Assembly (NCBI GenBank): GCA_028534125.1
Contig: CM052816.1
Coordinates: forward strand, 35,466,001 to 35,530,000
Reading direction: 5' to 3'
DNA from: Lama glama
Taxonomy: Eukaryota
DNA length: 64,000 bases
Shown here: piece by piece, positions 31,221-61,417 of the stretch
Layout: each line of letters starts with the position of its first letter
How positions within the stretch are numbered: the stretch's first letter is position 1
Position numbers and translations under genes: made by a program
The notes under the pieces: model-generated
Seen by the model: the letters and a program-made list of their open reading frames with translations, nothing else
Database searches by the model: none
Told to the model about the DNA's origin: nothing

Positions 31221-31720
31221 NNNNNNNNNNNNNNNNNNNNNNNNNNNNNNNNNNNNNNNNNNNNNNNNNNNNNNNNNNNNNNNNNNNNNNNNNNNNNNNN
31301 NNNNNNNNNNNNNNNNNNNNNNNNNNNNNNNNNNNNNNNNNNNNNNNNNNNNNNNNNNNNNNNNNNNNNNNNNNNNNNNNNNNNNNNNNNNNNNNNNNNN
31401 NNNNNNNNNNNNNNNNNNNNNNNNNNNNNNNNNNNNNNNNNNNNNNNNNNNNNNNNNNNNNNNNNNNNNNNNNNNNNNNNNNNNNNNNNNNNNNNNNNNN
31501 NNNNNNNNNNNNNNNNNNNNNNNNNNNNNNNNNNNNNNNNNNNNNNNNNNNNNNNNNNNNNNNNNNNNNNNNNNNNNNNNNNNNNNNNNNNNNNNNNNNN
31601 NNNNNNNNNNNNNNNNNNNNNNNNNNNNNNNNNNNNNNNNNNNNNNNNNNNNNNNNNNNNNNNNNNNNNNNNNNNNNNNNNNNNNNNNNNNNNNNNNNNN
31701 NNNNNNNNNNNNNNNNNNNN
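31221..31720. other. Assembly gap (500 N)
   Basis: Run of N. Confidence 1.
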
Positions 31721-50019: not shown

Positions 50020-50769
50020 GCATAGAGATTAAACAATATGTTATTGAAAAAACAATGGATCAATGAGGAAATCAAAGCTGAAATTAAAAAATACCTTGAG
50101 ACAAATGATAATGAAAGCACAACCANNNNNNNNNNNNNNNNNNNNNNNNNNNNNNNNNNNNNNNNNNNNNNNNNNNNNNNNNNNNNNNNNNNNNNNNNNN
50201 NNNNNNNNNNNNNNNNNNNNNNNNNNNNNNNNNNNNNNNNNNNNNNNNNNNNNNNNNNNNNNNNNNNNNNNNNNNNNNNNNNNNNNNNNNNNNNNNNNNN
50301 NNNNNNNNNNNNNNNNNNNNNNNNNNNNNNNNNNNNNNNNNNNNNNNNNNNNNNNNNNNNNNNNNNNNNNNNNNNNNNNNNNNNNNNNNNNNNNNNNNNN
50401 NNNNNNNNNNNNNNNNNNNNNNNNNNNNNNNNNNNNNNNNNNNNNNNNNNNNNNNNNNNNNNNNNNNNNNNNNNNNNNNNNNNNNNNNNNNNNNNNNNNN
50501 NNNNNNNNNNNNNNNNNNNNNNNNNNNNNNNNNNNNNNNNNNNNNNNNNNNNNNNNNNNNNNNNNNNNNNNNNNNNNNNNNNNNNNNNNNNNNNNNNNNN
50601 NNNNNNNNNNNNNNNNNNNNNNNNNAAAATGTTATGATAAATCACAGAGAAAAAAATGTGACAATGAGTGTGCATATGTCCATGAATGACTGAAAAATTG
50701 TGCTGAACACTGGAATTTGACACAACATTGTAAAATGATTATAAGTCAATAAAAAATGTTAAAAAAAAA
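50020..50769 (+). mobile_element. Young L1 flanking the gap (ORF2 piece left, 3' end right)
   Basis: RLNNMLLKKQWINEEIKAEIKKYLETNDNESTT is L1 ORF2 just after the endonuclease; the right side is an L1 3'UTR ending aataaaaaatgttaaaaaaaaa. Confidence 0.85.
50126..50625. other. Assembly gap (500 N)
   Basis: Run of N. Confidence 1.
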
Positions 50770-58010: not shown

Positions 58011-59497
58011 GGGGAAAAGGCTCTAAGAAAACAAGGAGACAGTTTCAGCAGTTGGAGCAAGGCAGACACTATCGCTATTATAATACCTATTCTTTACTGC
58101 CTGATTCCAAGATGAAAAATAAAAATTGTTTCTGCACAAGTGATGTGTTGGAAATAGAAAAATCAGCTATTTAGCTGGAATGCAGCTAGAATAAAATACC
58201 TGTTTCTATAATGACTGTAAAGAAACTACTTACCTGAACTGCCAATTTACAGAGGTTCTTTGTGGATGGTGAATATGAGAAAAGTGTAAGAGGCCAGAAT
58301 AATTTGAAACACATCTACCGCCTTGTCTCCCCTCCCCTCCTCCTATCAATGGTCTGACTCCTGGGGGCTGTTAGGAGAATTGCAGGACGATACCACTGGC
58401 ACTGGACACCTTCTTCCAAAGTAAAATGCTGCCATCTGGAGGCTTCCAGAGTACAAAAGTAATACAAAAAAATAGAAACCAAAAAATCTGTTTCAACTTG
58501 GAAAAAAAAATTATATATTATATATTATAAGGTAAATCTTCTGCCTCCCTTTCAAGATTATTGATCTACTCAGGTTTTGTATTCAGTTTTGATCATTTAT
58601 ATTCTTCTAGGAAAACATCAAATTCTCCCAGATTTTCAAATGCATTGTCATAGAGTTGCATATAATATTCTTCTATAAAAGTGTTAGTCTCTCATTTACT
58701 CGCAGTTATATATGATTTTAATTCTCAGTATTATATCTTTTTACTTGTTTCTCTTATTGTAGAATTTTGAGCAATAGAATACATATTTGGACTCTGTCCC
58801 AGGGAGACAACACTGATAATTACGTACAGAATGGACTAAAAGAGAGAAGATATGGGAATACTAAATGGAATACAGGAGGCAACTGTCATGTCTCGAATTA
58901 GTGATGACTAGAGTCTGAACCAGGGAGAAGGAGATTTAAAGGATTTTACAAAATAAAATCCGTAGGAATTGACTATGATCTGTGCTATACGAGAAAAGAA
59001 AAAGGTTAACATAATGCTGCAGTTTCTAGCCTAGAATGATGGAAGTGTTCTTAACCAAAGCAGAGAGAATAATGATCTCCTGTGAGGACATCTGAGTTAG
59101 AGAAGGTGGAAGGACAGCCATGTGAAAATGCCCAATCAGTGTGGAAACAGAACTGTAAGTCAAAGCTAGAGGTGGTCACTAGAGAGGTGAGAAAACATGA
59201 GATCAGCTGGAAAAAATCTACAGAGGGAGAAAGGAGTGAGTATACTAAGATATCAATAATTAATTGAGAGGTTTTTTAAATAAAGACTTATACTTTCAGG
59301 CAGCTGAACAGTCAGAGAGCATATGAGAGAAGCCAAGAGAGTAAAGAATTTAAGGAGGAGGAGGAGGTTTAGGAAACACATAGATTAAAATGATGAAAAA
59401 TTTGGCTACACAAAAAGAAAAACTTTTACTTGTCTCTTTTATTGTAGAATTTTGAGCAGGAGAATGACATATTTGGACTCTGTCCCAAGCAGACAAC

Positions 59498-60283
59498 TGT
59501 GGGAGCCCATGATTGGGTTAACAAATTGTAACAGACCCCAGCCGCTTGTCTCCTTAAAGAAGAGCAAATGTGCTTAGTAACTGCCTTGCTTGTATAGTTG
59601 AGGTTTCAGATAGCACTCTGCTCCTAGCAAAACAACAACCCAGGCCTTCGGCTATAAACGCTGGGCGTGCCTGCTGTTAGATAGTCTTCTATCCCCAAAG
59701 CAAGGAACTGGCTGGGCTGGCGGTCTGCTTTAACATATCTATAAGAATGTATCTTGCTCCCCTCTTCCCATGACTTCCCTAAAGGTAAACTGTAGGCCCC
59801 CAAAGGAACGAGTCTTGGGCTGGAATGGTAAACAAGTTATAAAAAGCTGCAGACTCAGAGGTGAGAAGGCTGGTTAGCCAACGACGGGTAAGATCCCCAG
59901 AGGGGGGCAACCTAAGACAGGCATAGCCCAAGAAAAATGTTAAGCAGCTGCTTCTCATACATTCATTCCCCCCTGATAAGCTGCAAGGCTCGCTGATGTC
60001 AACACGACCATGACTTACCAAAACATAAAGGGTCTTCTGACCTTGAGCCAGACTCTACAATCTAGATCCCACCCTGTCTTTCCCTAAATTCCTGCATTCC
60101 ATCACACAACTGTCAGTGATTTCTCCTTTGATTGTATACAATAAATGTGGGGCATTTGAGAGGTTCGTGGAGTTGGCTCCCGACTCCCTCTCGCTCTCGA
60201 CTTTTCCACAGAGTCTTGAGTAATTCATTCCGTTTTGGTGGGACTTCTGCTGGCCAGAACCCACAACTGGTGATGAACCCACA
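59498..60283 (+). mobile_element. Class II (beta-like, ERVK) solo LTR, 786 bp
   Basis: TGTGGG...CCCACA inverted termini; 6-bp TSD gacaac / gacaag; contains a CTE-like element. Confidence 0.85.
59868..59928 (+). promoter_or_regulatory. CTE-like RNA export hairpin (putative NXF1/TAP-binding element)
   Basis: GCCAACGACGGGTAAG...AACCTAAGACAGGC matches the MPMV/SRV CTE core motifs as recalled; closing stems ggctg/tagcc and tcccc/ggggg. Confidence 0.8.
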
Positions 60284-61417
60284 GACAAGACTGATAATTA
60301 TGTACAGAATGGACTAAAAGAGAGATGATATGGGAATACTAAATGGAATACAGGCTATGGAACAAGGGATACCATGAGTAAACTAATACAACAATTAGCT
60401 GAGTATATGGAGGACTGAAAATGGAATGAAGAAAAGAAGGGATGAACGGGATTCTAGTAACTATAATTTCAGAGAGGATGGTTTTCCTTTCTTGGTGTTG
60501 GCCTTAATTGCAACCCCAGTTCTTAGCCTCTTTCTGCAGGGCTAAGAAAGTTCCCTCAGGTTCTCTGGCCACATGTTCTTCTTTTCCTCTTGGCCTCTGT
60601 GGCTGCTATTTCATTGACCTCCTGCCTCAGAAAGAGGGGTTTCCTGTGCTCATTCTACCCTCAGGAAAATAGCACATTCTGATTGACTTCATCCCTGCTC
60701 ACTTTTTGATGAGAAAAAGCATTGCTGGGTTTCTTGGAAATAAATATACATTACTTATTGATCCAGCTTTCCTGGTATGTAAGCTATTGCCTATAAATTA
60801 GTTGGCCTACTTTTAGAAGTTGCATTAATTCTTTTGGGCCAGTTGAGTACCCTTTAGTGCACAAACCACGAGAGAAGGTGAATTTACAACCTTGCACATT
60901 GCAACCATTTTACTAGATCAATGCATACTAGGGAGCACTTCCTCCTTTCCTTCTTTTTATATAGTTTTCATCCGGGCTATGAATAGGGCATCCTGTCCCA
61001 AGCAAAGAAGTATTCTATCTTTGGGTTATTTAAATTCTTGATCAATAGTAGCAAAAATCTTTTAACCTTAACTGAATACTGCTGTTGTGCACAATCTTTC
61101 TGTTTTCCCTACAGAGATCTCGGTTCACATAAGCTGGTTTTATTTTTATTACATAGCAAATGCTCTGTGAGAGTTATCTTTCTTTAAACATGCAAGCAGT
61201 AATAATGAATTTGAAGTTATGAAACACATCTGATTATATTTCTAATTGCTTTCTATAGGACCTTCTCTACTGTTTATCATAATCAGTAGTTTTTCCTTGT
61301 TTCATAATGACCTACCACAACACTTGCTAATAAATGTAACTTTCCTGGCAGAGGTCACCTAAACAGTAATATTAGAACTTTAAATTATTAAGTGAATTCA
61401 CCTCTTTTTATGGTTCC

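Follow-up and report, generated by a model that had tools for sequence, protein, structure and literature searches.

An RNA hairpin on the forward strand of a 64,000-nucleotide stretch of the llama (Lama glama) genome (C1:35466001-35530000, hereafter the window) is probably a single constitutive transport element (CTE) unit of the kind found in NXF1 and the type D retroviruses, built into the U3 region of the long terminal repeat (LTR) of an endogenous retrovirus (ERV) lineage that has a beta-type gag and a tRNA-Trp primer site. Export of unspliced viral RNA through direct NXF1 binding has its textbook example in the CTE. The hairpin, which lies in a solo LTR, is homologous to this element and shares its fold, with compensatory changes in the helices; in related proviruses it is found in U3, and its nearest relative is in the host NXF1 gene. 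The genome searches reported here covered 2.35 Gb.

The hairpin and its copies in the llama genome

An initial annotation of the window had drawn positions 59868-59928 as one hairpin with an internal loop, and its description is accurate in both respects: the letters it quoted match the window sequence exactly, and the minimum-free-energy fold of the interval takes the form drawn. This fold places a 6x6 internal loop, AACGAC (59880-59885) opposite AAGACA (59914-59919), between a GCC/GGC helix that closes it from below and a GGGU/ACCU helix above, followed by a G-C pair and a UCCCC-AGAG-GGGGG apex. A role of AAGACA in NXF1 binding is described in PMC4174252 and PMC4330393. We aligned 36 LTR hairpins (alignment A1) and built a covariance model, R1, solely from those 36; its sole match in the window is 59865-59928 (92.4 bits, E 3e-25, the window copy being itself part of the model). 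The element and the LTR around it have the following parts, in window coordinates.

59492-59497, no strand: left target-site duplication GACAAC, with partner GACAAG at 60284-60289 (sequence and copy comparison)
59498-60283, plus strand: solo LTR of 786 bp with TGTGGG..CCCACA ends (boundaries of matches to other genome copies)
59852-59858, plus strand: orphan 5' arm GACTCAG of an outer stem (alignment of 30 copies)
59865-59928, plus strand: core hairpin, the probable single-loop CTE unit (model R1 and fold)
59880-59885, plus strand: 5' strand of the internal loop, AACGAC (fold and alignment)
59886-59893, plus strand: GGGTAAGA, whose GGGU pairs with ACCU at 59910-59913 (fold and alignment)
59894-59907, plus strand: apical stem-loop UCCCC-AGAG-GGGGG (fold and covariation)
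59914-59919, plus strand: 3' strand of the internal loop, AAGACA, the reported NXF1-binding motif (fold and literature)

The placement of the hairpin within an LTR, also part of the initial annotation, was confirmed by the TG..CA ends and the 6-bp target duplication that delimit 59498-60283. The insertion target was itself a repeat: both flanks continue it (59424-59497 and 60283-60354), matching at 91-96% a second copy nearby whose sequence is unbroken (58739-58876), and the two matches overlap by 7 bases where the LTR inserted. A search of the genome with the LTR gave 1,220-1,225 candidates, and all 40 that were scored match it at 88-93% identity. The 30 copies that we fetched are without exception single LTRs, 770-808 bp long, with TGTGGG..CCCACA ends and flanks that are unrelated except in one identical pair; their 6-bp target duplications are perfect in 16 cases, agree at five of six positions in 12 and at four of six in one, and could not be assessed in the remaining copy. 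A separate observation concerns two LTRs on C33370, at 497570-498366 (minus strand) and 1027380-1028176 (plus strand) (L037 and L036), which are 100% identical, share identical 300-bp flanks and lie inverted 0.5 Mb apart, an arrangement that points to a recent inverted duplication or else to an error of assembly.

The hairpin itself is found in the alignment of all 30 fetched copies and is a constant component of this LTR family. Genome-wide, 265 sites match the two-part motif GACGGGTAA..CCTAAGACAGG exactly and none matches its reversed control; for a 16-mer spanning the AAGACA strand there are 242 exact matches, again against none for its control. In A1, 95.1% of cells pair and six pairs change on both sides, compared to 1.7 +/- 1.0 in shuffled alignments. 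AAGACA is intact in 34 of the 36 aligned hairpins, and GACGGG is intact in 17, decayed to TpG/CpA in 13 and otherwise changed in six. The statement that the CpGs are well preserved therefore holds for the window copy and fails for the family, in which this decay has reached 13/36 hairpins. The AACGAC strand of the window copy is unique among the 36; elsewhere the 5' strand of the loop reads AATGAC in most LTR copies and in the viral CTE, AGAGAC in host NXF1 and AAAGAC in the transduced copies described below. An outer stem, GACTCAG ... CUGAGUC, extends the hairpin to 90 nt in 29 of the 30 copies, and one LTR copy in which this stem is intact folds at -36.1 kcal/mol with a z-score of -2.93, none of 200 shuffles being equally stable. 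Beside the loop, GGGTAAGA (59886-59893), which 25 of the 36 hairpins keep intact, resembles a strong 5' splice site; going by its letters, host transcripts might use it as a cryptic donor or as a U1 site. A splice-site-like stretch is likewise remarked upon for NXF1 CTEs in the discussion of PMC4338338.

Homology to the type D retroviral and host NXF1 elements

Among 2.9 million viral contigs, the two-part motif occurs in only three, which are 8.1-8.6 kb long and of which two have two matches each and the third has one. These contigs (L070-L072) are probably Mason-Pfizer monkey virus (MPMV) and simian retrovirus (SRV) genomes, as suggested by a length of 8,557 bases, by the TLV_coat env and by the layout. 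In L071 the open reading frame (ORF) of a TLV_coat env (E 2e-163) ends at 1465 and is followed by two direct repeats, a polypurine tract and an LTR, which is the order of type D retroviruses; L070 is laid out in the same way over this stretch, env having been checked in one contig and the others being similar in length and layout. The window LTR agrees with the viral contigs at 22/24 (CTGGTTAGCCAACGACGGGTAAGA) and 15/15 (CAACCTAAGACAGGC) positions in the two strands from which loop A and the stems beside it are built, and the lower-stem layout is common to both (CUG, a 4-nt bulge, and GCC, against GGC, 1 nt and CAG). Either of the two viral repeats aligns colinearly with the LTR hairpin. From these identities and from the match to the NXF1 intron presented next, the CTE core motifs that the initial annotation saw in the hairpin belong to a true homologue of one CTE unit.

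The likeness to the MPMV/SRV element lies in the internal loop, in which AAGACA faces an AAUGAC-like strand between GCC/GGC and GGGU/ACCU helices, a feature that the window hairpin has as well. The two differ in architecture and in position. The viral CTE consists of two direct repeats of ~70 nt that pair across one another with two-fold symmetry to give a long two-loop hairpin, whereas the window element is one self-closing unit; and the viral CTE lies between the env stop and the polypurine tract, ending ~20 nt upstream of the tract, whereas the window element is inside the LTR.

Li et al. in 2006 reportedly described a cellular CTE in intron 10 of NXF1. A search with the Pfam family Tap-RNA_bind locates an NXF gene of the llama at C36:8.00 Mb, and R1 finds a single site in the 8 kb downstream of this match (L073:1857-1922, 75.9 bits, E 3.8e-21), the next best scoring 8 bits. 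The site falls in a 2.1-kb intron between the last exon with an LRR_NXF1-5 match (E 1e-33) and the first NXF_NTF2 exon, which is the position given for the intron-10 CTE in PMC4338338. Over 64 nt the site and the LTR hairpin are 83% identical, homology ending at the hairpin, and the site folds into the same architecture (z -2.16). This identity, together with the single loop of the NXF1 site, brings the LTR element closer to the cellular CTE than to the two-loop viral CTE. The cellular and LTR elements share the single loop, the same helices, AAGACA, GGGUAAGA and the layout of the outer stem. They differ in setting, the NXF1 element lying within an NXF gene after its LRR exons and the window element in a solo LTR in repeat-rich DNA, and also in detail: the LTR element has AAYGAC rather than AGAGAC, a rebuilt apical stem (CCCC/GGGG) and hundreds of LTR copies. 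A BLAST search by Wang, Rekosh and Hammarskjold (2015; PMC4338338) showed no CTE outside the NXF family. Further Tap-RNA_bind matches occur on two small contigs, C1068132 and C214498, and may be NXF paralogues or unplaced copies.

We then compared the lineages in a second alignment (A2) of 25 sequences that takes in the various LTR types along with NXF1, the transduced copies and units of the viral CTE, and that was fitted to the model, such that its counts lean towards structure. In A2, 96% of cells pair and 28 cells show double changes, compared to 8.0 +/- 2.7 in shuffles (0/500). Five of the six apical pairs change on both sides, the stem reading CCCC/GGGG, CCUC/GAGG or, in NXF1, UUCCU/AGGAA. 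By contrast, GGGU/ACCU is invariant across lineages in 24/24 rows, and the loop is invariant too.

The plainest alternative, that a GC-rich LTR hairpin resembles the CTE motifs by chance, might appeal to the fold of the window copy, whose z-score is only -1.3, and to the 11-mer CCTAAGACAGG, for which chance alone predicts 1.4 occurrences per window when one mismatch is allowed. It is refuted by the rarity of the motif, the R1 score on the NXF1 intron and the flanking identity, and we give it almost no credence: the two-part motif spans 20 bases and its control has no match in 2.35 Gb, it is confined to 3 of 2.9 million viral contigs, R1 reaches 75.9 bits on the host NXF1 intron, and the identity of the flanking strands reaches 22/24. 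Searches of the window with Rfam 15, at gathering cut-offs and by E-value, returned no CTE family and only chance matches (BMV3_UPD-PK1, E 0.38; DUF3800-XI, E 5.5). Because Rfam, which appears to include no such family, also found nothing on the viral CTE contigs and the NXF1 intron, its silence on the window carries no weight, and this check, which the initial annotation had proposed, speaks neither for nor against the CTE claim.

Retroviral lineage, LTR position and captured NXF1 sequence

The search for copies turned up no provirus of the exact 786-bp subfamily, all 30 fetched members being solo LTRs, and its coding capacity has to be read from relatives. A Gag_p10 search identified 49 places in the genome, several of which have upstream LTRs related to that of the window. 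The hairpin-bearing relatives are L065 and L054, both at 75% LTR identity, and L068, which has a different, short LTR and whose gag contains Gag_p10, p24, p24_C and zf-CCHC_5. In L065, L068, L079 and L060 the primer site agrees with the 3' end of tRNA-Trp(CCA) genes that the genome carries in L080 and L081, and a tRNA-Lys primer pattern placed after the LTR end had 0 matches. The description of the LTR as beta-like is accordingly apt for the gag of its relatives (Gag_p10, p24, zf-CCHC_5) and not for the primer site, which is of the tRNA-Trp and not the tRNA-Lys type. At its 3' end the window LTR reads CCCACA-AC-TGGTGA-TGAACCCACA (60260-60283), and the letters suggest that an older LTR end and the first bases of the primer site appear here in duplicate; L065 has a 17-18-nt duplication at the same place.

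The provirus L079 provides the reference for position. It has a tRNA-Trp site and a polypurine tract, and its two 419-bp LTRs agree at 96.4%. The hairpin starts ~80 nt downstream of the tract; 160-250 nt later come TATATAAG and AATAAA, which are 14 nt apart, a spacing that implies a short R. The GTATAC and AATAAA of the window LTR are arranged in a manner that resembles this TATATAAG and AATAAA pair. The U3-like position that was proposed for the hairpin is thus borne out in related proviruses with a recognisable TATA box and AATAAA, and is extended from them to the LTR type of the window. Three further features of the window LTR bear on its position.

59801-60052, plus strand: U3 module containing the hairpin (LTR positions 304-555; 88% match to both L079 LTRs)
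59838-59846, plus strand: TATAAAAAG box, ~20 nt upstream of the extended hairpin, a possible alternative promoter (read from sequence)
60140-60145, plus strand: AATAAA poly(A) signal, preceded by the TATA-like GTATAC (read from sequence)

If transcription started from the TATAAAAAG box instead, the hairpin would stand at the 5' end of a long R, in the manner of the trans-activation response element, and would be present at both ends of the viral RNA and in every transcript initiated in the LTR. In the window and in L065-type LTRs, the box does lie 20-30 nt upstream of the extended hairpin. It is not conserved, however, in the L079 type (CATAATAAG) or in the L068 type, where a canonical TATA box and AATAAA are found far downstream, and it would entail an R of ~290 nt as opposed to the short R that relatives suggest through the distance between their TATA box and AATAAA. 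We therefore regard an R-region hairpin as unlikely.

The composition of the window LTR also informs how the hairpin came to be there. As judged by eye, homology of the module reaches back to the first bases of the L079 LTR, with a purine-rich remnant before them. L060-type LTRs, the closest backbone, match the window LTR at positions 1-292 and 582-776, have ~50 bp in place of 293-581 and give no R1 match. The window LTR is thus a mosaic of an L079-type module in an L060-type backbone, which indicates that the hairpin module moved between LTR backbones.

Two other retroelements, both of them defective proviruses, carry a longer piece of the NXF1 intron. The first, at C5:20843891-20847757 (L074/L056/L075), matches the intron over 656 bp at 90% (L056) and comprises a 931-bp 5' LTR, a tRNA-Lys3-type primer site, a gag matrix fragment and then an env ORF with a furin-like site, a fusion peptide and a heptad repeat, on which GP41 scores 23.7 bits, below the Pfam cut-off. 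Its 3' part consists of the NXF1 intron in sense orientation (L073:1617-2272) with the CTE, ~60 nt, a polypurine tract and the 3' LTR. Its LTRs are 94.7% identical to each other, CTAAGT stands on both sides, and the element lies inside an L1-like repeat that continues across the insertion. The second, at C2:70943300-70945075 (L076), shares the 3' junction and the 60-nt stretch of the C5 element and has an NXF1 piece 96.2% identical to the host intron, ATCTCT flanks and, as its 5' part, a 146-bp LTR stub. Long matches to the NXF1 intron are found only in these two elements and in NXF1 itself (40/53 candidates scored). The shared junction, the LTRs and the target duplications indicate that the NXF1 piece was inside a retroelement and was mobilised with it, and the place it occupies, between a truncated env transmembrane (TM) region and the polypurine tract, is that of the type D CTE. 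The LTR hairpins may descend from a capture of the C5/C2 type or from another capture. A cluster of hairpin-bearing LTRs at C5:19.2-20.6 Mb, with six exact 16-mer matches in 1.1 Mb, adjoins the NXF1-transducing provirus.

The hairpin also occurs in tandem. A member of the window's own LTR family, L038, has two hairpin units 103 nt apart (L038:4908-5112), and L068-type short contigs have three units in L077 (C158089) and at least four in L078 (C120064); further paired units were seen elsewhere in the genome. The period is 99-103 nt in two LTR types, several of the arrays being on very short unplaced contigs, and an energy model folds these natural arrays mostly as side-by-side hairpins. According to PMC4338338, a twofold tandem of the cellular CTE was essential for high reporter activity, a single unit giving low activity, and a retrovirus was proposed to have captured the CTE from the cell and then duplicated it in the virus.

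Tandem arrays in U3 could also arise if the element acted at the DNA level as an enhancer, in which case the units would be ordinary enhancer duplications and the RNA fold would be a by-product of their origin. Tandem U3 enhancer repeats are common in retroviruses, and both the location of the hairpin upstream of the TATA box in U3 and the 99-103-bp units in the U3 of two LTR types fit this explanation. A DNA site, however, has no need of compensatory helix changes or of loop letters that stay fixed across lineages; moreover, the source of the element is an NXF1 RNA export element, and in a separate virus family the same piece of NXF1 stands upstream of the polypurine tract, outside the LTR. 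On this evidence, a DNA-level enhancer is quite improbable.

Activity, decay and origin of the element

Several of our observations weigh against the interpretation of the window hairpin as a CTE unit in U3. The fold of 59868-59928 has an energy of -19.8 kcal/mol (z -1.31), equalled in stability by 18/200 shuffles, and an 86-nt version (59850-59935) fares little differently (z -1.55; 14/200 shuffles); the RNAfold check thus returned the predicted shape without a stability above that of shuffles. The fold energy is unremarkable, and the significance of the hairpin rests on homology. The window copy has lost ~10 nt (GCCTGAGTC) just 3' of 59928, which form the 3' arm of the outer stem. Among 29 solo copies, pairwise diversity is 8.4% in the hairpin core, 7.4% in the LTR and 7.3% in the LTR outside the core, the core ranking 499th of 723 64-nt windows. 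All 30 copies of the 786-bp subfamily are solo, its gag and primer site being known from relatives at 75-88% LTR identity, and the placement of the hairpin in U3 and not R in the window's own LTR type is likewise inferred from those relatives. Lastly, R1 recovers both units of the viral CTEs in all three contigs at scores (13-26 bits, E 3e-6 to 0.04) that are no higher than those of the best control loci. A looser motif, GGGTAA..CCTAAGACA, is found in at least 118 stretches of the viral contigs, mostly in long non-retroviral ones, and among 80 unrelated viral loci with this motif, three were matched by R1 at E up to 1, the best at 26.2 and 19.2 bits and with broken apical stems. Given that control loci reach scores in the 20s, it is the exact motif and the identity of the flanking letters that tie the LTR hairpin to the viral CTE, and the model score is not decisive.

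A hairpin core whose diversity is on par with that of the LTR indicates that the solo copies decay neutrally. The mammalian neutral rate is ~2.2e-9 per site per year, and with this value the solo copies would be roughly 15-20 million years old, as a rough estimate. The window copy itself, with its loop intact and its outer stem deleted, is to judge by its letters most likely a relic without function today.

For the virus that gave rise to these LTRs, the CTE interpretation implies a simple mode of action. During replication, the U3 of the 3' LTR, hairpin included, would lie in the 3' untranslated region (UTR) of every transcript. The AAYGAC/AAGACA loop, held between GCC/GGC and GGGU/ACCU, would bind NXF1-NXT1 directly, and this recruitment would export the genomic RNA unspliced and with no Rev-like protein, which is what the MPMV CTE does from its site immediately upstream of the polypurine tract. 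Both activities, NXF1 binding and export, are predicted here from the sequence of the LTR hairpin. As U3 is copied to both LTRs, the hairpin would also be kept in every solo LTR.

Such an element would take its place among several known retroviral transport elements. The Rec response element (RcRE) of the human endogenous retrovirus HERV-K(HML-2) is an export element located in the LTR (U3-R) and present in every solo LTR, like the window hairpin; it needs viral Rec and the CRM1 pathway, and its sequence is unrelated to that of the hairpin. The RNA transport element (RTE) of intracisternal A particles (IAP) and the MusD transport element (MTE) feed the NXF1 pathway, are not CTE homologues and are located upstream of the 3' LTR, the RTE working through RBM15. 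The SERV-K/MER11 CTE (PMC11379458) resembles the window element in being an LTR-derived, Rec-independent transport element of a beta-like ERV for which host intron retention has been speculated upon. Unlike the window element, it is ~1 kb long, is reported by its authors to lack homology to published export elements as well as NXF1-binding loops, and was tested at the bench, whereas the window element is known from its sequence. Tap-binding motifs were looked for in bat beta-ERVs by Hayward (2013). The literature that we searched, whose coverage excluded most subscription journals and supplements, reports no NXF1-type CTE in an LTR and no transduction of an NXF1 intron.

Copies of the LTR could in principle have been put to use by the host. 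In such an exaptation, sense solo LTRs in introns or UTRs would supply an NXF1 site and thereby let intron-retaining host mRNAs leave the nucleus, either at the window locus or across the family. More than 260 loop-intact copies are spread over the chromosomes, AAGACA is intact in 34/36 hairpins, and the discussion of PMC11379458 (eLife 2024) floats the same idea for LTR-derived CTEs. Nonetheless, conservation of the hairpin core does not exceed that of the remaining LTR across the 29 solo copies, the CpG loop strand has decayed in 13/36 hairpins and the window copy has lost its outer stem. Nor is there a recognisable gene nearby: a Pfam scan of ORFs of at least 110 amino acids near the LTR matched 0/4 of those scanned, the other 12 of the 16 listed overlapping runs of N. 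A single cellular CTE unit, furthermore, gave low reporter activity (PMC4338338). We accordingly find host exaptation very doubtful, though conceivable at single loci. With respect to the ORFs, the window contains two runs of 500 N, at 31221-31720 and 50126-50625, which may be gaps or withheld sequence and which produce false long ORFs in all frames.

More broadly, the llama genome may keep separate fossils of CTE capture, in the form of the C5/C2 elements with their NXF1 intron, the 64-nt U3 hairpin and the tandem LTRs, along with a minority of copies that act on host transcripts, a scheme whose chances of being correct we consider evenly balanced. The capture step would be represented by a tRNA-Lys3 family in which ~650 bp of the NXF1 intron became fused to a truncated env TM, ~60 nt from the polypurine tract. 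In a reduction step, tRNA-Trp lineages would have kept the 64-nt hairpin at the start of U3, where it recombined between LTR backbones and reached hundreds of copies. In a duplication step, two to at least four tandem hairpins would mirror the route proposed for the two-loop CTE of MPMV. The copies that may act on host transcripts would be a minority of those, more than 260 in number, whose loop is intact.

The argument of Wang et al. 2015 (PMC4338338) for capture of the CTE had end points only, and the llama genome would supply intermediates. These natural sequences would make both the origin of the CTE and its dose-dependence directly testable, and the several hundred decaying, dated copies offer a read-out of which CTE positions matter. 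The same genome would be suited to screening LTR-borne NXF1 sites for effects on intron retention.

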